From: an uncultured virus (IMG/VR IMGVR_UViG_3300036835_000437)
Lineage: Duplodnaviria > Heunggongvirae > Uroviricota > Caudoviricetes
Virus record (IMG/VR): IMGVR_UViG_3300036835_000437
Direction: 5' to 3' (one strand)
Length of the DNA: 64,000 nt
Shown here: positions 2,779-43,104 of the stretch, piece after piece
Numbering within the stretch: the first letter of the stretch is position 1
Layout of the letters: every line of letters starts with the position of its first letter
Translations under genes and position numbers: made by a program
Notes under the pieces: generated by a model
Databases searched by the model: none
The model's input: the letters and a program-made list of their open reading frames with translations, nothing else
Told to the model about the DNA's origin: nothing

Positions 2779-3066
2779 ATGCGTGGCCGGATCGAGCGTC
2801 AGGTGATAGCCGAGAGTGAGCGGGTGGATGATCCGTTGTTGGTGAGCGAGGTCAAGACTGGGTTGGCGCGCTCGCCGCAGTTGGAGGGGGTGTTCATTGG
2901 GATGACGTTTACTGGGCGGGTCATGGGTGATGGGGAGGGTGAGTATGCTGGCGATCTGGTGCTGACGGTGGAGTTGGTGGAGGTGATGATCGAGAACCTG
3001 CGCAAGGCGGTGGCCAACGCCAAGCGGGAGCGGGAGCAGGAGCGTGGGGGTGCCGGTCATGGCTAG
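2779..3066 (+). CDS. Hypothetical protein
   Basis: GGGAGG RBS before ATG 2779 (MRGRIERQVIAES); overlaps next start. Confidence 0.55.
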   Translation: MRGRIERQVIAESERVDDPLLVSEVKTGLARSPQLEGVFIGMTFTGRVMGDGEGEYAGDLVLTVELVEVMIENLRKAVANAKREREQERGGAGHG

Positions 3067-3292
3067 GAGCCTGAAGGCGTACCGCGACGAGCTGGCGCCT
3101 GGGGTGTTTGGCTGGCTCGGGGAGGAGGCCTGGATCATTGTCGACGTTGCCACCGATAGCCTGGAGGTCGGCAGCCCCTGGGGTGGGTTCGTGGTGACGC
3201 GCAAGGCGATCGAGGACGGCAGCGCCTGGAAGGTGGAGTTCGGCCGGCAGATGGCGCAGTTACGGGAGAAGCGCGATGCTGCCGAGCACTGA
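3059..3292 (+). CDS. Hypothetical protein
   Basis: Overlapping ORF chain 2779-3829. Confidence 0.5.
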   Translation: MARSLKAYRDELAPGVFGWLGEEAWIIVDVATDSLEVGSPWGGFVVTRKAIEDGSAWKVEFGRQMAQLREKRDAAEH

Positions 3293-3506
3293 GCAGGTAG
3301 CGGAGAACATCCGCACGCATTGCGAGGCCATGGCGCGGGAGATCGCGCGGCGGGTGGAGGCGGCCGGCCGTGCCGGCACTGCCGAGGTGGTCGAGGTCGA
3401 GGCCCTGGCGGTGTTGCTGGACTGGATGCTGGGCGACTGGTTCCCCGGCAAGGAAGAGGGTAAGCTCTCCGAGGGTGATTCTAACATCCAGGCTCAGGGA
3501 GACTGA
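3276..3506 (+). CDS. Hypothetical protein
   Basis: Overlapping ORF chain with GGGAG RBS. Confidence 0.5.
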   Translation: MLPSTEQVAENIRTHCEAMAREIARRVEAAGRAGTAEVVEVEALAVLLDWMLGDWFPGKEEGKLSEGDSNIQAQGD

Positions 3507-3508
3507 TC

Positions 3509-3829
3509 ATGCCCAGAAGCGCCACCCGGCCGACCGTCGGAGACATCGTGTGGTACATGTCGGCATCGCCGCCCAACGTGCTGCCGCAGGCCGCGCTGGT
3601 GGTGAACATCGCCACCGTGGCCGGCTCTGGCTTCGGTATCCCGCTCCCAGGCTCGGGCCCGGTGCTCGATCTGGTGGTGTGGGATGCAACCGGAACCTCG
3701 TCGGTCAAGACCGGAGTGCAGTTCTACTACGGCACCCGGCCAACCAGCGGCCAGTGGTGTACCATGCGGCGCGTCAACATGCCGGCCAGCGCCAGCTCCT
3801 GGCCGTCCGGCTCGGCCGTCGGCGAGTGA
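3509..3829 (+). CDS. Hypothetical protein (PTVGDIVWY...AALV small beta-barrel type)
   Basis: GGGAG RBS; PTVGxIVxY motif is common in small phage proteins. Confidence 0.65.
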   Translation: MPRSATRPTVGDIVWYMSASPPNVLPQAALVVNIATVAGSGFGIPLPGSGPVLDLVVWDATGTSSVKTGVQFYYGTRPTSGQWCTMRRVNMPASASSWPSGSAVGE

Positions 3830-3862
3830 TCCCGTTAACCCCGTTCATTGAAGGAGACCACC

Positions 3863-4186
3863 ATGGCGCCCGCAGCGAAGAGCGAAGGCGGCGAGACCCT
3901 GCACGAACAGCGCAACCTCACCCCCGAGGAGATCGAGGACCGCACCAAGGCCAAGCTCAAGGCCGACCAGGAACGGTCCGAGAAGGTCGCCGAAGAGCTG
4001 GAAGAGGAGAACGAGAAGGCCAAGGAGCAGGCCAAGAAGGAGGCCGCCGAGGCCAAAGCCGACAAGGACAAGAAGGAAGCCGAAGCGAAGAAGTCTTCCG
4101 CTGCGCCTGCGGCGCAACCCCATGCCCCCCAGGCCGCCTCACACGGCGGCGCCTCCTCGCACGCGGCCAGCGGCGCCAAGAAGTAG
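3863..4186 (+). CDS. Charged, coiled-coil, low-complexity protein
   Basis: AAGGAG RBS; E/K/A-rich. Confidence 0.65.
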   Translation: MAPAAKSEGGETLHEQRNLTPEEIEDRTKAKLKADQERSEKVAEELEEENEKAKEQAKKEAAEAKADKDKKEAEAKKSSAAPAAQPHAPQAASHGGASSHAASGAKK

Positions 4187-4188
4187 CC

Positions 4189-4479
4189 CTAGCCGCCACA
4201 GTTGATGCGCAGGCTGATCGGATCGTCCGGTCGGCCTGCGGTGGTCACGGCAGACGTGACCCCACAGCGCCGGCAACGCACGTAGAGCAATCCCAGCCCG
4301 CGCTCGGGCCACAACACATAGGGTAGCTCACCCCGGCAGCTCGGCAGCCCAGGATGGTGGGCGTCGAGATGCTTGCCATGCGGATAATCCGGGTTGGGAG
4401 ATACTCTCGGCGCCCGCCCACCCTCGCGCGGCTCCCAAGTGATCTCCCAATCGGCAAGCTTAGGGGTAAGATCGCTCAA
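4189..4479 (-). CDS. Small Cys-containing (CxxC) hypothetical protein downstream of TIGR array 2
   Basis: ORF track 4189..4503; plausible TTG start (LSDLTPK) at the last degenerate repeat; CRRC and further Cys; start uncertain. Confidence 0.5.
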   Translation of the reverse strand: MSDLTPKLADWEITWEPREGGRAPRVSPNPDYPHGKHLDAHHPGLPSCRGELPYVLWPERGLGLLYVRCRRCGVTSAVTTAGRPDDPISLRINCGG

Positions 4480-5158
4480 CAGGTTTGGTGCCCTCAACCC
4501 CAATGGCTCGCTCTACTACCGTGGCGCTCTTTCTGTGGGTGGCTCGCTCATAACAAGCGGCGCTCTCCTGGCGACTGGCTCGCTCTACAAGTCTGGTGCT
4601 CTCTCCACATCCGGCTCGCTCACTTCATATGGCGCTCTCAGGCCGGATGGCTCACTCGAACCTGCGTGGTGCCCTCATCTGACGTGGCTCGCTCCTCGTG
4701 ATTGGCGCTCTCCGCTTGCGAGGCTCGCTCGGCCTATTCGGTGCCCTCGACCAGAATGGCTCGCTCAGTGTCTTTGATGCCCTCTCCAGTACTGGCTCGC
4801 TCAAGTCGTGTGGCGCTCTTCCATGATATGGCTCGCTCCTGCCTAATGGCGCTCTCGCCGCTTCTGGGCTCGCTCTCTCTGAATGATGCTCTCGTGGTGC
4901 GTGGCTCGCTCACAGAGATTGGTGCTCTCAGGAGATCAGGCTCGCTCAGACACATTGGCGCTCTCCGACATGATGGCTCGCTCCTGGAGCATGGCACTCT
5001 TCGCCCGACTGGCTCGCTCTGAGATGCTGGTACACTCCCAAGATTGGGCTCGCTCGCTGCGGATGGCGCTCTCATGTGACGTGGCTCGCTCGCTTGTTGC
5101 GGCGCTCTCTTCGACGCTGGCTCGCTCATATCATCTGGCACACTTTCGATCCGTGGCT
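4469..5158 (-). ncRNA. TIGR-like dual-repeat guide RNA array 2 (about 19 units of 36 nt), downstream of tasA
   Basis: Plus strand GGCTCGCTC at 4505, 4541, 4577, 4613, 4649 (variant), 4686, 4722, 4758, 4794, 4830, 4867, 4903, 4939, 4975, 5011, 5047, 5083, 5119 alternates with GGYGCYCTC-type repeats at 4487, 4523 ... 5137. Spacers are unique, 9 nt (two are 10 nt). Terminal repeats at 4469 and 5155 are degenerate. Confidence 0.92.
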
Positions 5159-5963
5159 ACTTCCAGTTCGGTGGCCTGATCTCGTGCGCGTGGCCACCCT
5201 CTTTCGTGAGAATGTACGGCTTGGGCGGCTTCTCTCCGGTGTCGATCTCCCACCACACGCTGTGCAAGTGAGAGAGAAACAGCTTGACCGCCCAGCGCCG
5301 CGCCCGCCCGTCGATCTGTGCCGGCGGGAGATGCCCCGCAGACAGATGCTTGAACGCCTCGGTCGACTTGTTGAACTTCATCGACAGGCGCAGCGCAAGC
5401 TCGGTATTGCCGCCGCTGTCGTTGCGGGCAACCTCGAACGCCTTGCGCTCGCGGTAGAGCTTGCCGTAATAGCAGTCCTCGGCATTGGAGAACTTCATGA
5501 AGCTCTGGCCGATCTTCCAGCACAGGGTCTTGAGTTCGGCATTCCACGGGCGCTTCTCGCCCTTCTTCCACTCGCTCGACGGGTCGAGCCCGGCAAAGCG
5601 CCAGATGTGGCCGACGGTGGGGCACTTCTTGATGTCGATGTGCGCGATCAAACCAGCCGAGATCACCGGGCCGATGCCGTAGATGCCCAGCATCCACTTG
5701 CCGACCTCCTTGCTCTGGGCGTAGCGCCCGAGCGCGGTCTTGAGCTGGCTCTCCAAGAGTTCGTTCTGCTCGGCAAACCACGTCAGCAACAAGTGCGGCT
5801 CCCCGCTCTTGTCGAGGGCGCGTACTTGGTTGCTCGACCGTTTGCGGTCCTCCTGGATGATGTAGTACGCCCCGACCAGAAACCTCGCCTCCTCGTCCGA
5901 CAGCGTGGCGGCGGCGATCTTCAGATCGACCGATAGCTTGGCAACGTGTACCTGCTCGTCCAT
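5157..5963 (-). CDS. tasA: TasA-like Nop-domain RNA-binding protein (TIGR-associated, no nuclease domain; IS110/Nop5 superfamily)
   Basis: N-terminal coiled coil, then WMLGIYGIGPVISAGLIAHID...GHIWRFAGLDP...WNAELKTLCWKIG...YYGKLYRERK...RARRWAVKLFLSHL, matching the Nop/IS110 C-terminal fold. No DEDD RuvC or HNH domain. AAAGGAG RBS. Flanked by 36-nt dual-repeat arrays. Confidence 0.88.
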   Translation of the reverse strand: MDEQVHVAKLSVDLKIAAATLSDEEARFLVGAYYIIQEDRKRSSNQVRALDKSGEPHLLLTWFAEQNELLESQLKTALGRYAQSKEVGKWMLGIYGIGPVISAGLIAHIDIKKCPTVGHIWRFAGLDPSSEWKKGEKRPWNAELKTLCWKIGQSFMKFSNAEDCYYGKLYRERKAFEVARNDSGGNTELALRLSMKFNKSTEAFKHLSAGHLPPAQIDGRARRWAVKLFLSHLHSVWWEIDTGEKPPKPYILTKEGGHAHEIRPPNWK

Positions 5964-6423
5964 GGGACGCTCCTTTCACAGTGGTGCTCTCTTGATGTGG
6001 CGCTCTCTTCGAGAGTGGCTCGCTCGCTTGCGGATGGTGCTCTCGGGCTAGATGGCTCGCTCGGCTGCAACGGTGCCCTCGCTTACAATGGCTCGCTCTG
6101 CGCTAGTGGTGCACTCCTGGTCTGTGGCTCGCTCATGGTTTCCGGCGCTCTCTCGCAGTGTGGCTCGCTCTGGCCTTTGGTTGCCCTCTCCGCAGTTGGC
6201 TCGCTCATAGGGTCTGGTGCGCTCTCTTTAGGTGGCTCGCTCGCGCGGTATGGTGCTCTCGGTCCTCTTTGGCTCGCTCCAGGATCGTGGTGCCTTCCGA
6301 TCAGATGGCTCGCTCGTTCTACGTGGTGCTCTCACATCGCACGGCTCGCTCGAATGGGATGGTGCTCTCATCGCTGATGGCCCGCTCGGTGGAGATGGTG
6401 CGCTCATTCTCAATGGCTCGCTC
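5964..6423 (-). ncRNA. TIGR-like dual-repeat guide RNA array 1 (about 12 units of 36 nt), upstream of tasA
   Basis: GGCTCGCTC at 6017, 6054, 6090, 6126, 6162, 6198, 6234, 6271, 6307, 6343, 6379 (variant), 6415 alternates with GGTGCTCTC-type repeats at 5983, 5999, 6036 ... 6397. Spacers mostly 9 nt. Confidence 0.92.
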
Positions 6424-6703
6424 TTATCTTATCCGCCATCGCGCGGCACTCGTCACCGGCGCGGTCGATATCGGGTGCAATGCCGGTATCGTGTGTTGCT
6501 CCAACATCAAGCATTGCATCGAGCCGTGCCGCCATCCGGTCGAGGAAGGCGGCGGCTTCGGTGAGATCGCATTCAAGCCGCGCGATAATCTCCTTGCGGT
6601 CACATGCCGTCTGATTGCGCAGCTCTAGGTCGGCCCGCAGCTGCTCGACCTCGGCCTTCAGGCGCACGAACTCGTCGGCTTCCTCTGGGCTGATGATGCT
6701 CAT
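6410..6703 (-). CDS. Hypothetical coiled-coil protein whose 3' end overlaps the first TIGR repeat
   Basis: MSIISPEE...KIRASH*; ATGA-coupled to the upstream gene. Confidence 0.6.
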   Translation of the reverse strand: MSIISPEEADEFVRLKAEVEQLRADLELRNQTACDRKEIIARLECDLTEAAAFLDRMAARLDAMLDVGATHDTGIAPDIDRAGDECRAMADKIRASH

Positions 6704-6963
6704 GCCCGCCCCACTTGCGTGGGCCGGACGCCGGACAACACCCACGAGACGATCTCGGGACGGGCGATGTACTCCTTCACCTGCTGGGTAAATATCGCAG
6801 CCTGCATCTCACGCTCTTGCGCACTGGTGCTGGTGGAGATGATGCCGGTAACGACGGCCAGGGTCATCGCCGTCTGCGCGTGCGCGATCGGCACGCCGGC
6901 CAGGACGTGATTGATCGCATCAACCAGCGCCAGCACCTGATCTTGCTCGGCTGTCGTGCTCAT
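6700..6963 (-). CDS. Hypothetical protein (likely leaderless first gene of the TIGR-tas operon)
   Basis: ATG lies 7 nt after a TACACT -10 box; no SD sequence. Confidence 0.55.
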   Translation of the reverse strand: MSTTAEQDQVLALVDAINHVLAGVPIAHAQTAMTLAVVTGIISTSTSAQEREMQAAIFTQQVKEYIARPEIVSWVLSGVRPTQVGRA

Positions 6964-6970
6964 GTATAGC

Positions 6971-6999
6971 AGTGTAGTGCAATATATCGCAAAGCGCAA
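6971..6999 (-). promoter_or_regulatory. Sigma70-type promoter TTGCGC-N17-TACACT
   Basis: Minus strand reads cTTGCGCtttgcgatatattgcacTACACTgctatacATG, an AT-rich patch in a GC-rich genome. Confidence 0.6.
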
Positions 7000-7125
7000 G
7001 AAGGAAGGGGCGGCTTGCCGGGCTTCGCGGTGGTTCTGTTACGAAGAGCACCGAGCCCGGCCTTGTTGGGGGTATGAAAGGTAGAACCCCCTCGCGCGCT
7101 GCCGCCACGCCTGCGTGGGGGTACC

Positions 7126-7332
7126 CTAATCGACCGCGTTGTACGCCCGCAACGCCGCATGCAGGCCGCTGGCAAGTGCACGACAATCCGCCGCCGCCCT
7201 CCGAAACTCGGGGGCCGCCGCCTGCAGCGAGCGTGCGCTCAGATTATCGAGCCGGCTCGCCATGCCGCGCAGAAAGCCGGCCGCCAGGGTGAGGTTGGCA
7301 ACGAGATGGTCTTCGCGCTCGCGATCGCTCAT
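7126..7332 (-). CDS. Hypothetical protein, paralogue of 6410..6703
   Basis: AAAGGA RBS; shares LTxAAxFLxxMAxRLD...CRAxA. Confidence 0.6.
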   Translation of the reverse strand: MSDREREDHLVANLTLAAGFLRGMASRLDNLSARSLQAAAPEFRRAAADCRALASGLHAALRAYNAVD

Positions 7333-7373
7333 GGGGGTCCTTTCATGTTGGTCGGAGGTAAACGCGGATCAGT

Positions 7374-7778
7374 TCAAGCCAGTTCGCCCAGCTCCTTGTA
7401 GCCAACGAGAATGTCCGGCGGTGCCGGGAACTCACCCCGCACGTAGCGCCACATGTGCAGCACGACGGAATAGTTGTTCACGTAACGCGAGTGCGGCGGG
7501 TGGAACTGCACGACGGTGTCTTCCGGCTCCCAGCAGCGGTCCTTCACCCAGCTCATCTCAATCCAGTTGGGTATCCGCCTGCGGGTCGAGACGCTCACAT
7601 GCTCCCACCCGGTGTCATCGCCGTCGGCCACCATGACGGTCAGCTTCTCGCCACACGGCCCAGGCACGGCCTCGAAGACGCCATAAGGCGCACCCTCGGG
7701 GCTGGCATAGGCACCGACGGCGATACGGTAATGCTCCAGATGCGGGTCGATCTTCACGGTTCTCTCTATGGCGGCCAT
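7374..7778 (-). CDS. Conserved phage protein (WEHVSVS...P.W.EM..VK...QFHPP..YVN...LHMW family)
   Basis: Motif string recognised from a widespread phage hypothetical family; start may be GTG 7757. Confidence 0.7.
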   Translation of the reverse strand: MAAIERTVKIDPHLEHYRIAVGAYASPEGAPYGVFEAVPGPCGEKLTVMVADGDDTGWEHVSVSTRRRIPNWIEMSWVKDRCWEPEDTVVQFHPPHSRYVNNYSVVLHMWRYVRGEFPAPPDILVGYKELGELA

Positions 7779-7909
7779 CGCTTGCGATTGCGCCGGGCGA
7801 TGTGGACCAGATGATGATGGAACGCAACCGCAACCCAGAAGCCCAGGTTGAACATGATCATGCTCCACAGGAACAGCCACGCCCAATCCATCGCTTGGCC
7901 CCCCTCTCA

Positions 7910-7952
7910 CAAAGAATCCGCCGCCGGGTACGGACTGGGTTCCCGGCGGCGG
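7910..7952 (-). terminator. Possible rho-independent terminator
   Basis: 11-bp inverted repeat CCGCCGCCGGG/CCCGGCGGCGG (7918-7952) followed on the minus strand by ATTCTTTG. Confidence 0.4.
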
Positions 7953-8093
7953 TGGCATGTTCCCCCGGAACCGAGGCGTACGGCACGGGTGGGAACAGTG
8001 CGGCCTGTGTCGTCTAGCATACTCTTGACGTGTGTAAAGTCAGCTAGCCGACACTATACCAAGATATTCCTGTGGATGGAACCCCTAAACAGG

Positions 8094-8728: not shown

Positions 8729-8947
8729 ATGAGTGTACAAGTGGCCAAACGCACACTTTCGCGGCCAGAGGGAATGCCACCCCTGCCCGGACGACGCACC
8801 ACCGGGATTATGGTGCGCGTGACCGATGCTGAGCACCGGGCATTCGGTCGCCGAGCCTCGATGTCCGGCCTCTCCACTTCGGCCTGGATCAGAATGGTCG
8901 CTCTGCGGCAGATCGCACGCGACGAGCTGGAGGAGAAAGACAAGTGA
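8729..8947 (+). CDS. Ribbon-helix-helix DNA-binding protein
   Basis: IMVRVTDAEHRAFGRRASMSGLSTSAWIRMVAL matches the RHH (MobC/CopG-like) pattern. Confidence 0.65.
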   Translation: MSVQVAKRTLSRPEGMPPLPGRRTTGIMVRVTDAEHRAFGRRASMSGLSTSAWIRMVALRQIARDELEEKDK

Positions 8948-9240
8948 GCTTGCACGACACTACGTTCGGCTATCTCAATCCGACTGCAGATCAGAAGGAT
9001 CGCATGGTGATCGTACGCAGCGCCGCTGCGGACTACGCCAAGACGCTGGAGCGCGAGCTGCCCGATGGTCCCGACAAGACCTACATCCTGCGCACGCTGC
9101 GCACGGTGGCGATGTGGGCCAATGTGACGATCACGCGCCACCCGGACGGCTCGCCGCGCGACCATGAGCCCGATCCCGTTGTGAAAGAGTATCCGATGGA
9201 CCATCCGGCGCCCGGTGACCTCGGGAGCGTGCCGCTTTGA
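8944..9240 (+). CDS. Acb2/Tad1-like hairpin protein (candidate signalling-nucleotide sponge)
   Basis: TFGYLNPTADQ..RM..VR......A..L...LPDGPDK...LRTLRTVAMWANVTITRH resembles the F.YH.P...Q....R...P..REK.LA.TKLEE..MWAN.AIAR family pattern. Confidence 0.6.
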   Translation: MSLHDTTFGYLNPTADQKDRMVIVRSAAADYAKTLERELPDGPDKTYILRTLRTVAMWANVTITRHPDGSPRDHEPDPVVKEYPMDHPAPGDLGSVPL

Positions 9241-10940
9241 CCAAGGCTGCCAACAGCTTTCCGATTACTGAGGCGCAGGCGCTTGAGACGCTCAAGTCGC
9301 TCAAGGCTGAGATCGCCAAACGCGCTAACCGCAAAGCCCAGGCCAAAGCCGGTGGGCTGATCGAGTTCGTGCGCTACTTCTGGAGCATCCTGGAGCCGGA
9401 AACCAAGCTGGTCGAAGGCTGGCTGCTGTACGCGATCTGCGACCACCTGGAAGCGGTCACCTTCGGGAAGATCACGCGCCTCCTCATCAACGTGCCCCCA
9501 GGCAGCATGAAGAGTCTCATGGTCAACGTGTTCTGGCCGGCGTGGGAGTGGTCGGCCATGGACATGCCGCACCTGCGCTACGTGAGCTTCTCGTACTCGT
9601 CGGGCCTGACCGAGCGTGACAATACCAAGTTCCGCAAGCTGATCATGAGTGAAAGGTTCAAGGAGCTGTGGGGTGAAAGGTTCAACCTGGAGAAGGAAGG
9701 TGAGATCAAGATCACCAACGACAAGACGGGGTCGAAGTTCGCGTCGTCGGTCAAAGGTATCGGAACCGGAGAGCGTGGAGATCGCGTGGTCATCGATGAC
9801 CCTCACGATGTTCATAAGAGTGAATCAGACGTGGTTCGAACTGACACGGTGCGATGGTTTAGAGAGACAATCACGGACAGACTTAACAACCTTGACGAGT
9901 CTGCCATCATCATCATCATGCAGCGCGTTCATCAGAGCGATATCTCTGGATTCATTCTTGAGCAGGGCTGGCTCTACTGCCACCTCATGGTGCCGATGGA
10001 GTTCGAAGCCGGACGGGAGCCCTACAACCCCCTCGGTTGGAAGGACCCGCGCACCGAGGACGGCGACCTCGCGTGGCCAGAGCGCTTCTCGCCCGAAGCC
10101 GTCGCCAACATCGAGCGCGAGAAAGGAAGCTTCGCCTACGCCGGGCAGTACCAGCAGCGCCCCTCCCCCCGAGGCGGAGGGATAATCCAGCGCAACTGGT
10201 GGCGGCCCTACACCGAAGCCGAATGCGGCAAGTTCGGCGTGCCCTGGCCCAAGTTTCCCATCATGTCCTACACGGTGCTCTCTTTGGACACCGCGCAGAC
10301 CGAGAAGAAGCAGAACGACCCTACGGCGGGCGTGGTGCTCGGGGTTTGCCGCGACATCTGGGAGAACCGACGACTAATCCTTATGTGGGCCTGGGCCGAG
10401 CGCCTGGAGCTGTACGAGCTGGTCAAGAAGATCGAGGAGACCGCCAAGAAGTTCAAGATCGACCGGGTGCTGATCGAGGACAAGGCCTCTGGCCACCCGG
10501 TGGCGCAGGAGCTGCGCCGTCGCGGGCGGGTGATCAGCGACACGCTCAGCCACAACCCAAAGACCGCCGACCGCGCTGACTTCGGCGTGACGCTCGTTAC
10601 ACCGGAAGGCGACCACGTCGCGCGCGCCTACGCCCAGCAGAACCTGTTTGAGTGTGGAATGATCTACGCCCCGGCCGAAGCAACGGGGATGGGCGACTTC
10701 CTGTTCAAGGACTGGGCCGATCGCGTGATCAACGAACTCGCCGATATGCCCAAGGGCACCCACGATGATCTTGCGGATGCCATGACCCAGGCGCTCGCCC
10801 ACATGCGCGCGCTCGGGCTCGCGACCCTCCCCGATGAGGACGAGCTGGATGACATCGAGGAGAAGAAGTATCGGCCGGCACCGGCCCCCATGTACCCCGC
10901 CTTCGGCGGCGGATTGACCATACCAACAGGGTTGCGTTGA
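9237..10940 (+). CDS. terL: Terminase large subunit
   Basis: Walker A-like LLINVPPGSMKS, Walker B VVIDDPH, MQRVH, RNase H-like LSLDTA, IEDKASG and HDDLADA. Confidence 0.95.
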   Translation: MTKAANSFPITEAQALETLKSLKAEIAKRANRKAQAKAGGLIEFVRYFWSILEPETKLVEGWLLYAICDHLEAVTFGKITRLLINVPPGSMKSLMVNVFWPAWEWSAMDMPHLRYVSFSYSSGLTERDNTKFRKLIMSERFKELWGERFNLEKEGEIKITNDKTGSKFASSVKGIGTGERGDRVVIDDPHDVHKSESDVVRTDTVRWFRETITDRLNNLDESAIIIIMQRVHQSDISGFILEQGWLYCHLMVPMEFEAGREPYNPLGWKDPRTEDGDLAWPERFSPEAVANIEREKGSFAYAGQYQQRPSPRGGGIIQRNWWRPYTEAECGKFGVPWPKFPIMSYTVLSLDTAQTEKKQNDPTAGVVLGVCRDIWENRRLILMWAWAERLELYELVKKIEETAKKFKIDRVLIEDKASGHPVAQELRRRGRVISDTLSHNPKTADRADFGVTLVTPEGDHVARAYAQQNLFECGMIYAPAEATGMGDFLFKDWADRVINELADMPKGTHDDLADAMTQALAHMRALGLATLPDEDELDDIEEKKYRPAPAPMYPAFGGGLTIPTGLR

Positions 10941-32036: not shown

Positions 32037-32418
32037 GCCCTCCGCAGAACGAGGACAAGCGCATCACCGATGTGGTCGAGCGCGCCACCTTGGCGTGGAT
32101 CGATCAGTACAACCAGATGCTCATCCTGACGGCGCAGGCGCTGCAGCGGCTGCATCTGGCTTTCGATGGGAAGTTCACCCGTGGACCGTAATCTGGAGCT
32201 GGAGCGCTACCTGGACAGCTCGTACCGGCGGGATGTGATGGGCGAATCAGTTAAGGTCGAGGCGCCTGCGGCTACGCCAGAGCTGATCAAGACGGTCAAG
32301 GGCATGATCGCGGGCATTGACGGGCTTCGCCTGGGGGCGAACCTCGCCAATCGGGACTTCGTCACGTACCAGCATCGACGTGCGTTGGAGCGTCTGCTCA
32401 AGCAGCTGGAGGCAAGCC

Positions 32419-35400
32419 GTGCCGCTGACGGCTAAGGGCCAGAAGATACTCTCCAACATGCGGAGCGAGTACGGCGCCGACAAAGGCGAGCGGGTCTTCT
32501 ATGCCTCGCGCAACGCGGGGCGGATCACGGGCGTCGATCCCGGCCACTGGCGCGGCGGCATTGTCGGCTATGCCGAGGGCGGCATCGTCAACCACGATCA
32601 CGATCCTGATCTGCCGCCGATCGAGGATCGCGCCGAGCTGATCCCGCAGACCGAGGGCGCCGGGCCCACCCAAGGTCAGGTGCTGCAAACCATCGAGCTG
32701 TTGAAGCGTAACCGCGACCGCGCCCAGGGCATCGATCAGCTCGATCCAACGCCGCCGCTATTGCGTGGATACTTCCATCGGCCTGACCGCGAGAACCCGC
32801 CTCGGGTTCAGATTCCCAGCCTGCGGCGTCGTCGGTTCGGGCCGTCGCCGGACGGCATCGAGGAGATGTACGACGGCCCAGACAAGGGCTTCGGCCGCTA
32901 CGCGCGCGGCGGGCGCGTCAAGTACTTCGAGGATGGCGGCGGCGGCAGCGACGGCGGCACGGGTGACGCTGGTGGCTGCACCGGTACCGGTGGATGCAGC
33001 GAGGGCAGCTGCTCTGGCATGGGCGGCTGCGGGGGCTGCAGCTGCGCGGGCGCTGGCGGCTGCGCTGGCTGCTCGGGCAGCGCCTGCAGCGGTGGTTGCT
33101 CGTCAGGTGGCGGCTGTAGCGGTTGCTCGGGCGCTGGCGGTGGCGCTGGTGGCTGCAGCGCAGGCGCCGAAGGCGATACCGCAGGCGTCGGTGGCTGTCT
33201 CGGCGGCTGCACGGCTGCGGCTGCTGCGATGGGGGCGCTGGGGGCGGAGGCGACGACCGGGCAGACCGGACAAACGGGGGAAGGAAGGGGCGAGGGAAGA
33301 GGCGGCGGCCCGACTGGGATGGGCCTCGGCTACACGGGCCAGACCGGTCAGACAGGCTTAGGCTGGGGACAGACAGGCGTAGGTTGCGCTTACGCCGCCT
33401 TTGGTCCCGGCGCTGCAGCAGGGTGCCATGCTGTCGGTGGCGGCCCGACGGCGGCAGAGGCATACGCTGGTGGCCCATTCTCGGCGGGCGCGCTTGGCAC
33501 CGCGCACGGTGCGGAGACGGGCGGTCAGTTTGGTGCCAATGCGGGCCTCGGCTATGGCGGCACAGGTCTTGCGGGTACAGGTGCGTTTGGAGCCGAGAGC
33601 ACGGCCGGCGGTGGTGGCACGAACGGCATTGGCGCGGCTGGGGCGTCCTTCGGCGGCTGCGCCAACGCTGGTGCCTGCCTGGGCATGGGAGGAGAGATAT
33701 CGCTCTCACCAGCGGCGGCGGTTAGCCAGGACGTTTCAAGTCGCGGCGGAGATCGCGGCGGCGGCAGCCGAGGCAGCGCTTCGCAGGCGGCGGCTGGTGA
33801 TCGCGGTGGCGCCCCCACTGGCTCTCCTGCCGGGACAGGGGTCGGTGATGTCGGTGATCCTGGGGCTGGCGGTGAGCCATCGGGCGGCCCAAGCGACATC
33901 GGCGGCAACATCGGTGGTGGCCCACAGGGTGGGCCTGCTGCTTCGATCTCCACCGACCAACCCGCCGCCCCAGACCAGCCTGCTGCTCCCGATGATCAGG
34001 GTGGCAAGGGCGGCAAGAGCGGCACGATCGCTGGTTCCGCTCCAGCCGCACCGGCCGCAGGCACCTTCACCGGACAGGTTGGCAACGTCAGCGTCTCGCC
34101 TGCGACTGCCGCGAACACGGGCGGGCTTGCCGGCGGGCTCTACGGCAGCACCGTGGCTGCGGACCCCAGTGTCCCCGGCGGCTTCGCGGAGAAGACCGGC
34201 GACATCGCCCCGGGTTCTTTCGATGTCGGTAATCCCTTCGGCGATCCCAACCAGGGTCTGAGCCCGACCGGCGGGAAGACCGGTGCTGCTCCTGGTGCCG
34301 CTCCCACTGGGCTCGGCAGCGTGGCTGACGTGGGGGAGCACAGCTACTCTCCTGTCGGCAACACTTCGCTCACAGGTCAGAACCCAGGCGGCTGGCAGGG
34401 CAGCGTGTCGCCGGCCGTGTCGCTCAACGACATGACCTTCTCGCCTACTGTTACCGGCGCTCCTCCGGGAGAGTTTACCGGCGGCAGGACCGGCAACATC
34501 GGCATCGGCACCCACGGTAGTGTGGCGCCCGGCGGGGCGACGGACATCAACTCGCTGGCGGCAAGCCCCACTGCTCTGAGCGGCGCTCCCACGGGCTTCT
34601 CTAACCAGACCGGCGGCATGTACGGGCTCAGTGCCGGCTCCGGGGTGACCGGACAGGGTGCCGGTTCGTTCACGGGTGGCCAGAGCGGCGGCGTCGGCAC
34701 GGCAGCCGGTGAAGCGGCGCCGATGGGTGGTGCCAGCCCGGCTGCGTCGATCTCCGATCTCGGTCCAGCTGCGGGAGAGGCGGCCCAGCTCGGCGGTGAG
34801 CCGGCTCCTGGTGGCTCGCGTGGTGGCGGTCGCGGTGGTGAAGCGGCACCGATGGGTGGCGCCTCGCCAGTCGGTGGCGGCTGGACCAGCTCCGGTCGCG
34901 GCGGCGAGGCGGCGGCGCTTGGCGGCGAAGCGCCTGTCGGTGGGACGCCGGCCGGTCTTGCTGCCGGTGAAGCAGCTCCGATGGGTGGTGCTGCGGCCCC
35001 TAGCGGGGGCGGCATTGCTGCCGGCGAGGCTGCGCCGATGGGTGGCGCCACGCCTGCTGGCACCGGCATTGCTGCGGCAGCTGGCGAGGCGGCGCCGCTC
35101 GGTGGTGCCCCTGATCCAGGGCAGGGTCGCGGTGGTGGGCGTGGTGGCGAGGCGGCGCCGATGGGCGGTGCCTTCGGTGGCGTTCCAGCTGGTGGCTGGA
35201 CGAGCAGTGGCCGAGGTGGTGAGGCGGCACCGATGGGTGGTGCTGCGCCAGCGGGCGAAGCGCCGACCGTAGCTGGCGAGGCGGCGCCGATGGGGGGTGC
35301 GCCCGATCCCAGTGGCGGTAGGGCAGGTGCTCAGACGGGCGGTCCTGACTTCAATGCGACGTTTGCTGCAGCCCAGGCGGCGCAAGATCAAGCGATGCAG

Positions 35401-38307
35401 AACAACCTCGACGTCACGATGACGCCGGGATTGGACGAGCGGGCGGCGGCGATACAGGGGAGGGGAGGCTTCCCGGCTCTCGGCACCCAGAGCTTCGCGG
35501 CCACGCCGGTCGGCAACTATGCCGTCGCCAATGCAGAGAACACCCAGGGGCTCTACGGCGGGCAGTACGGCTCGCAGGAACCTGGGGCAGTGGACCTGTC
35601 CTCGGTGGGGATCGCGACCCCCGGTAATATCGGCGGGCTGAGCTTCGGGCCAGGGAACGCCTTCGGCGACCCCAACTACGGCCTGACCAACACCCAGGAC
35701 ATCGGGCAACCCGCTCCAGGCGAGCGAGGTGGTGGCCGCAGTGGTGCGGTTCCGGGCGGCAGCTGGGCCGACCAAACCTTCGGCTCGCTGGCGAACTTCG
35801 GTGGCCTGACTGGCAGCCGTGGCACGACCGGCATTGCCAATATCGGTGCCGCCCAGCAGGGCTATGCCCCCGGCTTCGGCCCGGCGGCGGCGTCCGGCGA
35901 TTGGACCTCGGGTGGCCGTGACGCCACGCTGGGTTGGGGTGCGCCGACCGGGCTGGCTGCGGTTGCGCAGGGCAACCTCGGCGCGCCGATGGAATCGGTT
36001 GCGCCGCAGACGACGCCCGCTGCCGGGCCGGGTGATCGCGGTGGTGGCCGCAGCGGTGGGTTAGACCTCGGCACCACCATTGCATCGGCGCTCGGCATCT
36101 CGCCGGCAGCTGCGCAGGGGCTGTCTGAGGACAGGGCTTCTCTCGGTCCCGCTGCGCAGGTGGGCGCGCCCATGGACCTCGCCCAGGTCGCGCAGCAGAC
36201 CCAGGAGCCCGATGCCAGGAGCCTCGCCAGCGCGATTACCGGATGGTCGGACAAGGACCTCGCGGCTGCGCTCGCTCCTGCCGCCAACACCATCAGCAAC
36301 ATCGGCGGCTGGCTCGGTGCTACGCCGACCGGCGGCTGGTTGGGGCTGGGCACGCCAGCGCAGGCGCAGACGACCGACATGCCGACCTTCGGCTCGACCA
36401 AGGGCTCGTCCGGCTATGGCCCAGGCCAGGGCGGCGCCTGGACGAGTGGCGTGCAGTCAGCAGCCCCTGGCGGTACCCAGAGTGCAGCGCAGGCAGCCGC
36501 TGCGGATCAGGCTCTGTCGCAAGCAGTGGACGAGAGCAAGGCGGCAGCCGGGCCGGGTGGCCCGACCGGTTCGGTCGATCTGGATACGCCAGCGGAGATC
36601 GCCGCGCCGCCGGCCGATCTCGATCCTGCCATGGTGGCGCCGGCCGTGCCTGCGCTTGAGAAGAGCGTCACCGACCCAGAGAAGACGGGCAGTCGCGGTC
36701 TTGGCACGCAGCTCGCGGCAGCGCAGCCGGCGATCGATCCCTATGTCGGCATGCAGCACGACGAGCCTGTCTTCGATCCGACGAAGCCGGTCTCGCCGCC
36801 ACCGCAGCTTGCGCCGCCCCCTGTGACGCCACAGGTGACGCCGCCGCCGGTCAATCCGTTCGACATCACACCCTATCCGTCGCTCACTCCTTTCGGGCCC
36901 AGCCGTGGAGGCGCGACGCTGGCGGCGTATAGCCCCGCTGAAAGGGGCGGCCAGCCCTCGTTCGGCCCGCAGAGCAATCCGTTCTCGGGTCAGCAGACCG
37001 TGCCGGCGGAGCCCGATCCCGGCTTCGAGGCGCCGCAGTCAGAGCGCAGCACGGTCACCAACTCACCGCTCGGCGACCTCGCGCAGACTGCCGAGAACTA
37101 CGCCATGACCACGCAGAGCTTGGCGAACCAGTCGCCCGCGCTGAGCGGCGGTGGCCTCGGTTACGATGTAAGCCCCAGCATCGGCACCCTCAGTCCCGGC
37201 GATGTGACGGTTGATAAGGGCGGTAAGGGTGATCGTGACTCGCAGTCTCCCAACCTTGGTCCTGGTGTCACCGAAGGTGAGCCGTCTGGTCTCGGCGGCA
37301 GGTCGGACCTCGGTCCTAGCGTGCACGCCAGCCCCGGCGTCGACTTTGGCGGGCTGTCTGCCTACTCGTATGGAGACGAACCCATGGGCCTCAATACGCT
37401 CGGCATTGACAGGAGCGGCCAGCAGTGGGGCATCGCCAGCGGCGGCTATGTCAGGCACCGCGCTGGTGGCGGCATCGTCGGCAACTCGATCAAGACGCTG
37501 GTCGACGTCTCGCCCTCGGCAGCGGCCGGGCAGATCGATCAGAACCCTCTCACCGGTTACAACCTCGCGCGCACGTTCCCACCCGACGTGCTCTACGACA
37601 CCTTCGAGGAGGTCGGCCACAACCGGCGCGACCAGAACCCGCCGCAGAACGGCGACGACAGCAACAAGTCTCCGCAGCAGCTGCAGATCACCGTCCCCGG
37701 CGCGAGCGGCGGCGGCACCTTCACCGGCATGGCGCAGGGCGGCTACGTCGATGCGCCGGGTTACTACGCGCCCGGCGGTTTGACCCAGGCCGGCATGCAC
37801 ACGTTCGGCACCCAGGCGCATTACAGCGGCGCCAACGTGCGGCCGGCGATCGGTCGCCAACCCGGCGTGCATCTGATCAGCTCTGACGTTCCTGGGCGTA
37901 CCGATCGTATCCCGCAGCGGGCCAAGCCCGGGAGCTACGTGCTGCCGGCTGACGTCGTCTCGGGCCTGGGCCAGGGCAACACCATGGCCGGCGCCAAGAT
38001 GTGGGGACAGGCGATCATGGCAGCGGCTGGGCCAGCCGGCGCCGGCACCATGGGCGCGATGCGGCGCGGTTCGATGCCGATGGCGCGGCGTCCTGGTGCG
38101 CGCGGCTTTGCCGATGGCGGCCCTGTCGAGGACGAGTACGTGCCGATCGTGACAGCGGGCGGCGAGGTGCTGATCGACCCGGAGTTCGTTGAGGCGCTCG
38201 GGAACGGCAGTGAGATGCTGGGCAAGCGCAAGCTCGCCGAATCCGTTCTCAACGTGCGCAAGCAAACGATCGCACATCTCAAGAGCCTACCGAGGCCGGT
38301 GAAGTAG
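32419..38307 (+). CDS. Giant (about 1960 aa) Gly/Ala-rich putative internal/ejection protein
   Basis: GGAGG RBS before GTG 32419 (MPLTAKGQKILSNMRSEYG); Cys-Gly tract, GEAAPMGG repeats, C-terminal PGRTDRIP...GSYVLPADVVS domain. Confidence 0.75.
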   Translation: MPLTAKGQKILSNMRSEYGADKGERVFYASRNAGRITGVDPGHWRGGIVGYAEGGIVNHDHDPDLPPIEDRAELIPQTEGAGPTQGQVLQTIELLKRNRDRAQGIDQLDPTPPLLRGYFHRPDRENPPRVQIPSLRRRRFGPSPDGIEEMYDGPDKGFGRYARGGRVKYFEDGGGGSDGGTGDAGGCTGTGGCSEGSCSGMGGCGGCSCAGAGGCAGCSGSACSGGCSSGGGCSGCSGAGGGAGGCSAGAEGDTAGVGGCLGGCTAAAAAMGALGAEATTGQTGQTGEGRGEGRGGGPTGMGLGYTGQTGQTGLGWGQTGVGCAYAAFGPGAAAGCHAVGGGPTAAEAYAGGPFSAGALGTAHGAETGGQFGANAGLGYGGTGLAGTGAFGAESTAGGGGTNGIGAAGASFGGCANAGACLGMGGEISLSPAAAVSQDVSSRGGDRGGGSRGSASQAAAGDRGGAPTGSPAGTGVGDVGDPGAGGEPSGGPSDIGGNIGGGPQGGPAASISTDQPAAPDQPAAPDDQGGKGGKSGTIAGSAPAAPAAGTFTGQVGNVSVSPATAANTGGLAGGLYGSTVAADPSVPGGFAEKTGDIAPGSFDVGNPFGDPNQGLSPTGGKTGAAPGAAPTGLGSVADVGEHSYSPVGNTSLTGQNPGGWQGSVSPAVSLNDMTFSPTVTGAPPGEFTGGRTGNIGIGTHGSVAPGGATDINSLAASPTALSGAPTGFSNQTGGMYGLSAGSGVTGQGAGSFTGGQSGGVGTAAGEAAPMGGASPAASISDLGPAAGEAAQLGGEPAPGGSRGGGRGGEAAPMGGASPVGGGWTSSGRGGEAAALGGEAPVGGTPAGLAAGEAAPMGGAAAPSGGGIAAGEAAPMGGATPAGTGIAAAAGEAAPLGGAPDPGQGRGGGRGGEAAPMGGAFGGVPAGGWTSSGRGGEAAPMGGAAPAGEAPTVAGEAAPMGGAPDPSGGRAGAQTGGPDFNATFAAAQAAQDQAMQNNLDVTMTPGLDERAAAIQGRGGFPALGTQSFAATPVGNYAVANAENTQGLYGGQYGSQEPGAVDLSSVGIATPGNIGGLSFGPGNAFGDPNYGLTNTQDIGQPAPGERGGGRSGAVPGGSWADQTFGSLANFGGLTGSRGTTGIANIGAAQQGYAPGFGPAAASGDWTSGGRDATLGWGAPTGLAAVAQGNLGAPMESVAPQTTPAAGPGDRGGGRSGGLDLGTTIASALGISPAAAQGLSEDRASLGPAAQVGAPMDLAQVAQQTQEPDARSLASAITGWSDKDLAAALAPAANTISNIGGWLGATPTGGWLGLGTPAQAQTTDMPTFGSTKGSSGYGPGQGGAWTSGVQSAAPGGTQSAAQAAAADQALSQAVDESKAAAGPGGPTGSVDLDTPAEIAAPPADLDPAMVAPAVPALEKSVTDPEKTGSRGLGTQLAAAQPAIDPYVGMQHDEPVFDPTKPVSPPPQLAPPPVTPQVTPPPVNPFDITPYPSLTPFGPSRGGATLAAYSPAERGGQPSFGPQSNPFSGQQTVPAEPDPGFEAPQSERSTVTNSPLGDLAQTAENYAMTTQSLANQSPALSGGGLGYDVSPSIGTLSPGDVTVDKGGKGDRDSQSPNLGPGVTEGEPSGLGGRSDLGPSVHASPGVDFGGLSAYSYGDEPMGLNTLGIDRSGQQWGIASGGYVRHRAGGGIVGNSIKTLVDVSPSAAAGQIDQNPLTGYNLARTFPPDVLYDTFEEVGHNRRDQNPPQNGDDSNKSPQQLQITVPGASGGGTFTGMAQGGYVDAPGYYAPGGLTQAGMHTFGTQAHYSGANVRPAIGRQPGVHLISSDVPGRTDRIPQRAKPGSYVLPADVVSGLGQGNTMAGAKMWGQAIMAAAGPAGAGTMGAMRRGSMPMARRPGARGFADGGPVEDEYVPIVTAGGEVLIDPEFVEALGNGSEMLGKRKLAESVLNVRKQTIAHLKSLPRPVK

Positions 38308-38940
38308 ATGAGAGTGCTCTACAACATGGACAGCGGTGTGCCCGGCGTGCGTCTCGCCACCAAGAAGGACGAGGGTGAGATATTCGGCCTGCTCATCATG
38401 CTGCATGCCGAGAACGGCTTCTTCACCATGAACCGCGACAAGGTGATTGCCGGCATTCAGCACGCGACCGAGCGGCGCGGCGGCATCATCTACGTCATCG
38501 ACGAGGGGCCGAGAGTCGTTGCGACTCTAGGGATGACGATCTCGGTCGATTGGTACAGCGATGACGAGTACCTGCACGAGCGCTGGAACTTCGTGCACCC
38601 AGACTATCGCAAGAGCGACTATGCCAAGAGGCTATTGAACCAAGCGATGTGGTCGCACGAATGGTTCAAGGCGCACGGCAAGCTGATGCCGTTCTACTGC
38701 GGGATCAACTCGCTGGAGCGCACCGAGGCGAAGATCAGGATGTACGCGCGCCACATGCCACTGATCGGCGCCTACTTCGCCTACGGCATGGCGCCGCGTC
38801 AGCAGGAAGCTACCGCGCAGGAGATGCGCGCGATCGAGGAACGGACGCGCAAGAGCAACGCTGCACACACCAGAGAGGTCCGTCCGGCAGTGGAGACGTT
38901 GATTCGCGTCACTCAGCGCCAGGAGGAAAGCCATGTGTAA
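38308..38940 (+). CDS. GNAT-fold acetyltransferase-like protein
   Basis: VRLAT..D, FVHPDYRKS.YAKRLL acetyl-CoA-binding-like motif. Confidence 0.65.
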   Translation: MRVLYNMDSGVPGVRLATKKDEGEIFGLLIMLHAENGFFTMNRDKVIAGIQHATERRGGIIYVIDEGPRVVATLGMTISVDWYSDDEYLHERWNFVHPDYRKSDYAKRLLNQAMWSHEWFKAHGKLMPFYCGINSLERTEAKIRMYARHMPLIGAYFAYGMAPRQQEATAQEMRAIEERTRKSNAAHTREVRPAVETLIRVTQRQEESHV

Positions 38941-43102: not shown

Positions 43103-43104
43103 CG

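Follow-up and report, generated by a model that had tools for sequence, protein, structure and literature searches.

Background

TIGR arrays are described in PMC12045711 as two different 8-12-nucleotide (nt) repeats that alternate, with spacers of ~9 nt between them, in a 36-nt unit, next to a tas gene. In the same description, the 36-nt tigRNAs start and end midway through an edge repeat, both the edge and the loop repeat end in a box C 'CCA', and the two spacers pair with different DNA strands, A with one and B with the other. The first TasR site was identified there by sequencing DNA that had copurified with the complex. The TIGRFinder/TIGRSafari resource comprises 6,685 arrays. TasA has been reported to repress transcription in an RNA-guided manner in E. 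coli (preprint 10.64898/2026.09.09.750476), and both sources describe natural TIGR targets as not yet determinable, the arrays lying on metagenomic contigs and the short spacers giving many false matches. Against this openly stated gap, we analysed a 64,000-nt stretch of DNA from an uncultured virus (IMG/VR IMGVR_UViG_3300036835_000437; the whole stretch is hereafter called the window), in which a gene that we assign to tasA is flanked on both sides by arrays of this kind. An original prediction, made from the sequence, had proposed that 18-base-pair (bp) targets could be reconstructed from the split spacers of these arrays, and that they would show whether the phage silences host defence genes, rival phages or plasmids.

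We consider it highly probable that this region, from an uncultivated soil phage, constitutes a dual-repeat TIGR-TasA locus, and that its guides read sites outside the phage genome, which would be bound without being cut. Compared by published description rather than by direct sequence comparison, the locus is like FpTIGR-TasA of Flavonifractor plautii (PMC12045711) and MbTasA (preprint 10.64898/2026.09.09.750476) in its alternating short repeats, 9-nt spacers and 36-nt unit, in having arrays on both sides of a phage-borne, solo Nop-domain protein with no nuclease domain, and in having repeats that both end in CCA, with a covarying extra pair in the edge repeat. It is unlike these systems, as they are described there, in that its repeats start with GAG and not with UG, and in that degenerate repeats overlap the start region and the stop codon of tasA.

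Anatomy of the arrays

Tandem Repeats Finder reported period-36 and period-18 arrays spanning 4722-6423, and direct parsing of the minus strand resolved the region 4469-6423 into two arrays with a strict 18/36-nt period, both co-directional with the tasA gene that they flank (Table 1). Read on the minus strand, each unit opens with the edge repeat GAGCGAGCC; then come spacer A (9 nt), a loop repeat of variable sequence and spacer B (also 9 nt). The irregular 12th unit of the upstream array (6025->5964) contains the AAAGGAG ribosome-binding site of tasA, and its final degenerate repeat (5972-5964) adjoins the tasA ATG. On the other side of the gene, the first edge repeat of the downstream array is degenerate (GAAGTAGCC, 5163-5155) and has the tasA stop codon inside it; the final exact edge repeat lies at 4513-4505 and is followed by a terminal degenerate copy, GAGCGATCT, at 4477-4469. 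Together the two arrays hold 30 regular units (11 + 19). An open reading frame (ORF) of 104 amino acids (aa) without a family match (4189-4503, minus strand) has its putative start within the last units of the downstream array.

Table 1. Coordinates of the TIGR-TasA locus and of other features of the window
Feature	Position	Strand	Description
Upstream TIGR array	5964..6423	-	11 regular units 6423->6017, then irregular 12th unit
Unit up1	6379..6423	-	Spacers ATTGAGAAT / ATCTCCACC, unusual loop form GAGCGCACC
tasA	5157..5963	-	268-aa protein, Tas (Nop + coiled-coil) fold, no nuclease domain
Downstream TIGR array	4469..5163	-	19 units
DUF7694 ORF	7374-7958	-	194 aa; DUF7694 E 6.8e-21, phrog_7839; between TIGR locus and packaging genes
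Acb2/Tad1 hairpin-domain ORF	8944-9240	+	98 aa; Pfam PF24729, E 2.1e-6, 28.2 bits (cut-off 27)
Three giant virion-associated ORFs	32317-48891	+	1,996, 1,389 and 1,928 aa

At 28 of the 32 edge positions the edge repeat is exact. The loop repeat, with the consensus GAGRGCRCC, has 13 forms among the 30 units, the commonest being GAGAGCGCC (n = 8). GAGCGAGCC behaves as the edge repeat: its conservation far exceeds that of the loop repeat, and a copy of it, exact or degenerate, stands at either end of both arrays. The anatomy and the repeat statistics also bear out the assignment to TIGR arrays. Spacer length is 9 nt in 28/30 spacers A and in 28/30 spacers B, the rest being 10 nt, and 26/30 units have two 9-nt spacers.

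Edge and loop repeats share the pattern GAG....CC. On the minus strand ..CC closes both of them, and an A follows in 24/30 spacers A and 24/30 spacers B; across the family this figure is 75-80%. The near-constant A at spacer position 1 seems to belong to the box C 'CCA', as its final letter, and not to be derived from a target, so that the effective target would be ~16 bp long rather than 18. It is also in line with the description of SpTasH in PMC13421893, where a mismatch at spacer position 1 is tolerated. Since box C 'CCA' stands at the repeat ends when the minus strand is read, the transcribed strand would be that of tasA. A covarying extra base pair has been described for the edge repeat (PMC12045711), and positions 3 and 8 of the edge repeat covary here in the same sense, with G-C in 13, A-T in 4, T-A in 1 and G-T in 2, i.e. 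20 of the 24 distinct locus consensus pairs. The loop repeats pair likewise (G-C 17, T-A 2), so the 3/8 pairing alone cannot distinguish edge from loop.

When one of the soil data sets (X4) was compared with 4300-6600, contigs were found, beside this array, in which the order of the units and the spacers are different. The variant joints are 5974->6089, 6117->6306 and 6423->5154, and loose ends run on into different spacers, one of them bearing a spacer also found in a related phage record, L002, discussed below. This indicates that array variants co-exist in one soil sample.

The TasA protein

By phmmer against the PDB, the protein between the arrays matches TasR (9mty; E 1.8e-13, query 71-186 aligned to TasR 154-272) and TasH (21kl, together with seven further entries; E 6.9e-10, query 87-175 aligned to TasH 139-226). 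At 20-26% identity, these alignments are confined to the C-terminal Nop parts of TasR and TasH, and the solved chains, at 331 aa (TasR) and 354 aa (TasH), are longer than the 268 aa of this protein. The protein also matches a protein of Salicola phage CGphi29 by tblastn (E 5e-7) and the family phrog_4285 (E 8.5e-43). A sub-threshold match to the IS110 C-terminal family was the only Pfam result, and no HNH or RuvC nuclease family was found in the protein with Pfam. An AlphaFold model built with 22 relatives is all-helical with a predicted local distance difference test score (pLDDT) of 88.3, and in a Foldseek search of the PDB, ranks 1-10 were all TasH or TasR chains (probability 1.00, template-modelling score 0.56-0.71), followed by the IS621 recombinase. 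Because of these matches to the Tas fold, and because no nuclease family was found, we conclude that the protein is TasA, a Tas protein without a nuclease.

Near its C-terminus, P249, H258 and H260 are invariant among the 22 relatives and Y250 is in the consensus, forming a P-Y...G-H-x-H segment that aligns with the C-terminal end of TasR. A Y/H processing loop is said in preprint 10.64898/2026.09.09.750476 to mark dual-repeat systems, and the P249/Y250/H258/H260 segment is a candidate for this loop.

Relatives of the locus

Relatives of tasA were found at 39 IMG/VR loci and, in a profile scan of species genomes, at 32 genome loci, most of them accompanied by arrays of related repeats. Judged by record title, the relatives from the genome scan come from many phyla, and include Acidobacteria-type metagenome-assembled genomes (MAGs), a Halomonas isolate, an alphaproteobacterial MAG and a Latescibacterota MAG. 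One record, L001, is the same phage, with 28/28 units identical. In L002, TasA is 90% and the terminase 84% identical to those of the window, and 0/22 units are identical, four being homologous but diverged. Since no records other than L001 and L002 have further genes in common with the window, the TIGR-TasA module moves among unrelated phages. Two of the tasA relatives, G005:C12:220870-221667 (the Halomonas isolate) and G004:C1:136013-136798 (Acidobacteriaceae bacterium KBS 96), have one in-frame stop each, TGA in the former and TAG in the latter, and stand beside short arrays of 6 and 5 units, respectively; these two may be decaying prophage copies.

Predicted targets and target searches

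The order in which the two halves of a guide are joined, spacer A followed by the reverse complement (rc) of spacer B, was derived here from the '8-nt 3' overhangs' and the 'C-5' rule of PMC12045711. As A + rc(B) fits both, 18-bp targets can be written for the units, and the five targets listed in the original prediction were reproduced exactly in this way from units up1, up2, down1, down12 and down15. Both half-orders were tested throughout. Going by the published relatives, the arrays would be transcribed with or beside tasA, the transcripts would be cut in the middle of the edge repeat into 36-nt tigRNAs, and a TasA dimer would hold each tigRNA. Spacer A would pair with one DNA strand and, in the adjoining half-site, spacer B would pair with the opposite strand, such that each guide would read a contiguous 16-18-bp site without an adjacent motif. 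As there is no nuclease, binding would block transcription or another DNA transaction and would not lead to cutting. About 30 different sites would be read in this manner, belonging to the host or to competing mobile elements of the same soil community.

The sites are placed outside the phage because the window, which amounts to about nine tenths of the genome as judged from the nearest virus record (G001, 49.9 kb at 72% completeness), holds no match at ≤3 mismatches. The original prediction had reported no self-match after a few spot checks, and the check is now exhaustive for the window: in the register with GAGCGAGCC as edge repeat, with the arrays masked and up to 4 mismatches tested, no guide matched at ≤3 mismatches in either half-order. 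In the other register, one 2-mismatch match (22831) and one 3-mismatch match (61454) were found, which is about the chance level, the expectation, calculated and not obtained from window shuffles, being ~0.15 two-mismatch matches for the 58 patterns of one register. Two options that have been raised are guides that regulate the phage's own genes, as a life-cycle switch, and guides that attack other TIGR arrays. Beyond the window results, which argue against the former, no guide matched array DNA, its own or that of relatives (26.9 kb), at ≤3 mismatches, and the up1 site was absent at ≤3 mismatches from five related phage records. For the 64 kb analysed, self-targeting is all but refuted, and it is most improbable that the guides serve either of these two ends.

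Several observations weigh against the main reading, that of a TIGR-TasA locus whose guides bind external DNA. At the array ends, no sigma-70-like promoter or intrinsic terminator was predicted above shuffle level on the minus strand; the sole terminator-like site downstream on this strand (4334-4320) is weak, and the count for the region is 3 against a shuffled mean of 2.2. RNA contigs cover the locus at 4631-4781 and 5048-5276 only, and as these are assembled contigs without strand or ends from a single soil RNA library, and DNA can occur in such libraries, they are no evidence of transcription. The repeats start with GAG and not with the published box D 'UG', and the preceding base varies. 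According to PMC12045711, the box motifs may diverge if edge and loop repeats change together, and the GAG start is shared by both repeats here, i.e. both have changed together. Four of the 60 spacers are 10 nt long (56 are 9 nt), and the homologous units in L002 differ by insertions and deletions (indels), an odd finding if the targets of the guides do not change.

To these come the searches themselves. When 212 units of the family were compared with 723 kb, 7 and 7 matches were found at 2 mismatches against 8.8 and 7.9 for shuffled pairs, and none at ≤1. In 1.34 Mb around 70 related loci, 351 family guides gave 20 and 18 matches at 2 mismatches against 21.9 and 13.3 for shuffled pairs; in this set, matches at ≤1 mismatch occurred only in 13 loci that had been fetched by the up1 pattern itself and are therefore circular. 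The second register gave one 1-mismatch match for 304 pairs in the same 1.34 Mb, a count made without shuffles. Exact 8-nt cores in any orientation, 6-20 nt apart, were found 57 times for the 494 native units in 3.94 Mb, and 60.6 times on average in 20 shuffles (range 41-86). The original prediction had named beforehand, as the outcome that refutes a target read-out, native spacer pairs that hit no more often than shuffled ones, and this is what we found in every data set searched. No target was found in any of the data, and binding of external DNA is thus proposed by analogy with the published systems. What survives of the original interpretation is the TIGR array, the edge repeat and the 18-bp targets that can be written from it; the proposed conclusion about host defence genes, rival phages or plasmids cannot be drawn. 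The negative searches do not show that the guides lack targets, because neither the genome of the host nor the assembly to which the window belongs is in the data, and 18-mers match large collections often by chance, and the target list is a valid hypothesis generator without an identified target.

As to where external targets might lie, one possibility is that the guides silence genes of the host chromosome during infection, e.g. defence genes, and that their targets were missed because of the missing host genome. A reprogrammed TasA represses chromosomal genes, and host silencing is listed as an option by the authors of preprint 10.64898/2026.09.09.750476. The lack of a self-target in the window is compatible with this, an Acb2/Tad1-like anti-defence ORF 2.5 kb away hints that the region may be a counter-defence neighbourhood, and the AT-rich spacers described below are what would be inferred for promoter regions of GC-rich hosts. 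However, for the one relative whose host chromosome is known (L077 in G003), none of the guides matched at ≤1 mismatch in 2.8 of the 4.31 Mb (65% of the chromosome, 18,400 letters of the 2.8 Mb being N), and the 5 and 6 matches at 2 mismatches do not exceed the shuffles (means 5.6 and 4.5). This search, which covered 30 of the 35 units of L077, namely those with two 9-nt spacers, counts with the other searches against external binding, and it argues against prophage guides aimed at their own host chromosome, at least there. The lack of identical units between phages whose TasA is 90% identical also implies a turnover faster than host genes would demand, and the sites of up1 in bacterial genomes, detailed in the next section, lie in unrelated genes. 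Taken together, host silencing seems to us unlikely.

Fast turnover of guides between close relatives, together with the array variants in one soil sample, would fit an arms race, i.e. guides that aim at rival phages or plasmids in the same host and block their transcription or replication, like those of plasmid-borne type IV CRISPR. The presence of the TIGR-TasA cassette in otherwise unrelated phages is in keeping with this, and competition between elements is favoured for TasA in PMC12045711. Scans of IMG/VR for exact matches of 3 of the 30 native guides (up1, down5 and up10) speak against it, as down5 and up10 gave 0 matches each, two controls with swapped halves gave 0 and 4, and the 13 stretches matched by up1 are unrelated; nor did the 351 family guides find anything beyond shuffles in the 1.34 Mb of related phage DNA. 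We would call competition among mobile elements a tentative proposal, and a somewhat unlikely one.

The guide up1

Only one unit, up1, is kept between this phage and L002, where its counterpart lies at 10837-10881, in the other array, with 17/18 positions and the same unusual loop form. A further locus, L062, whose TasA is 56% identical and which has no other genes in common with the window, carries the half-sites of up1 with A and B swapped, reading the same duplex, and does so twice (5055-5099 and 6357-6401), at the outer ends of both arrays, as the first unit of one and the last unit of the other. A swapped match as close as that of L062 arose in 5/300 shuffles of spacer partners. As swapped spacers are still functional according to PMC12045711, the L062 copy is a plausible sign of a shared target. 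It can be hypothesized that selection on a genuine target, ~16 bp long and shared, maintains up1, although we give this a rather small chance. If it were true, the up1 site would be the first natural TIGR target that deserves pursuit, and the swapped copy would provide natural evidence for the published A/B symmetry.

The contexts of the 13 IMG/VR stretches that bear the up1 site are unrelated to each other and in most cases AT-rich, and none of them has another guide within 10 kb. In metagenomes, the site was found in at least 120 stretches, and the 80 that were read range in GC from 0.20 to 0.68 and have unrelated flanks and proteins. Among alphaproteobacterial genomes, the site occurs at ≤1 mismatch in 4/401, in unrelated genes, compared to 1 for the reversed control, and it is absent from 1.16 Mb of related DNA. 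The 16-bp core of up1 has 5 sites in 4/251 genomes, and these matches are explained by the fact that all five encode a common coding word, S-T-I-L-D/E, in five unrelated proteins. A double perfect core in one of these genomes, G002, was considered as a target and rejected, since its two sites lie in unrelated ORFs and reflect this word; the two ORFs resemble malate synthase G and FlhA.

Spacer composition

The impression in the original prediction that the spacers are AT-richer than the surrounding genome was correct: from position 2 to the end, spacer GC is 52.7%, against 64.7% for the window, and 0 of 10,000 draws of 60 random window 8-mers were as low. The third-position GC of the called phage ORFs is 0.70-0.96. 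Across 30 TIGR loci (the window and L002-L078) with a locus GC of 36-68%, spacer GC ranges over ~36-58% and follows genome GC weakly, with a regression slope of 0.29 +/- 0.08. In GC-rich phages, the spacers are 10-17 points AT-richer than their own genomes, and among the 8 loci with a GC below 49%, 6 have spacers whose GC exceeds that of the locus by 2-14 points. In a second hypothesis, weaker than that on up1, the spacer composition would be kept near 45-53% GC whatever the GC of the genome, so that the spacers might not simply be copied from the DNA that they target. Guides are also shared across lineages more often than shuffling would predict, with 3 pairs at ≤2 differences of 16 in the same orientation (shuffled mean 0.06) and 1 pair with swapped halves (shuffled 0.017). 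Given this sharing, and the spacer GC of 52.7% in a high-GC phage, the spacers are constrained; they are neither drifting to the mutational equilibrium of the phage nor plain samples of DNA with the composition of the phage. Possible reasons for the offset are a constraint on heteroduplex stability, AT-richer classes of targets, or an origin other than by copying.

These data bear on the idea that most spacers have no present natural target and form a fast-mutating pool of near-random guides, or of decaying copies, in which a few, such as up1, are functional. The near-uniform composition, the length variants and indels in the spacers, and the outcome of all the target searches would agree with such a pool, and no adaptation genes are known for TIGR according to PMC12045711. 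No covariation was seen between spacers A and B, or for A9/B9 in particular (0.23 complementary, 0.30 identical), and half-spacers are not reused within the array above chance (one pair each at 7/8, expected 0.85), which points in the same direction. However, neutral drift should raise the GC of the spacers to that of the phage, and yet they are 12 points lower, so that some constraint must act; the edge repeats are exact at nearly all positions, tasA is intact, and the cross-lineage sharing of guides exceeds shuffles. A pool of this kind appears quite unlikely to us, and we retain the interpretation of the locus as an array of guides for sites outside the phage.

The phage and neighbouring genes

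That the window is a phage is seen from its terminase, portal, head and tail proteins, lysis gene, Erf, exonuclease, methyltransferase and helicase. The locus is present in six soil DNA data sets (X1-X6), and the nearest virus record, G001, is without the 3000-8000 region. No close cultured relative was found, the nearest cultured phages being ≤44% identical in terminase and portal; these mostly infect Alphaproteobacteria, which is a weak hint, by protein similarity, at the host. A host search in genome contigs by TasA alone found nothing.

The Acb2/Tad1-like ORF lies just upstream of the terminase gene and has relatives encoded in L002 and L004; its domain match makes an anti-CBASS/anti-Thoeris sponge possible. 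In the virion region, a GNAT acetyltransferase ORF lies between the first two giant ORFs, and one giant ORF has a match to DNA-ejection proteins. These features suggest a podovirus-like particle with giant internal proteins.

Comparison with known systems

What the locus offers to the question of natural TIGR targets is a clean list of ~30 guides in a phage that recurs across soil data sets. It illustrates the same obstacle met by the published studies and does not break the deadlock. Of use are the quantified negative controls, the exclusion of self- and array-targeting for this phage, and up1 as the best candidate for a guide with a real target. With the host identified, the guide list could decide between host silencing and competition among mobile elements, and the locus would make a clean test case.

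The best sequence and fold matches are SpTIGR-TasH of Salicola phage CGphi29 (PDB 21kl, 9w03, 9w04 and others) and TaTIGR-TasR (PDB 9mty), which use the same tandem-spacer guide logic. TasH and TasR are DNA-cutting proteins with an HNH or RuvC nuclease at the N-terminus, whereas the protein here is without that part, as can be seen from alignments that begin only at TasR residue 154 and TasH residue 139. In having an array-encoded guide, a proposed binding without cutting, and a mobile element as carrier, the locus is comparable to the nuclease-free CRISPR systems of type IV and type V-M, a comparison also drawn in PMC12045711. Its proteins and repeats are unrelated to those of CRISPR, where the guide is a single ~30-nt spacer that needs a protospacer-adjacent motif (PAM). 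Matching of spacers is the routine way to find the targets of CRISPR; it failed here, since large collections cannot usefully be searched with as little as 16-18 bp.

A third comparison, made in PMC12045711, is with box C/D small nucleolar ribonucleoproteins (snoRNPs) and IS110 bridge RNAs, which have in common with the TIGR system a Nop-type RNA-binding domain, two short pairing segments and box C/D-like flanks. On the IS110 side, this likeness is reflected here in IS621 as the next-best fold match after the Tas proteins and in the sub-threshold Pfam match. Unlike these systems, the locus has no methyltransferase partner and no DEDD transposase domain, and its guides are arrayed by the dozen. 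It is a well-formed addition to the recently published dual-repeat TIGR-TasA family (2025-2026).

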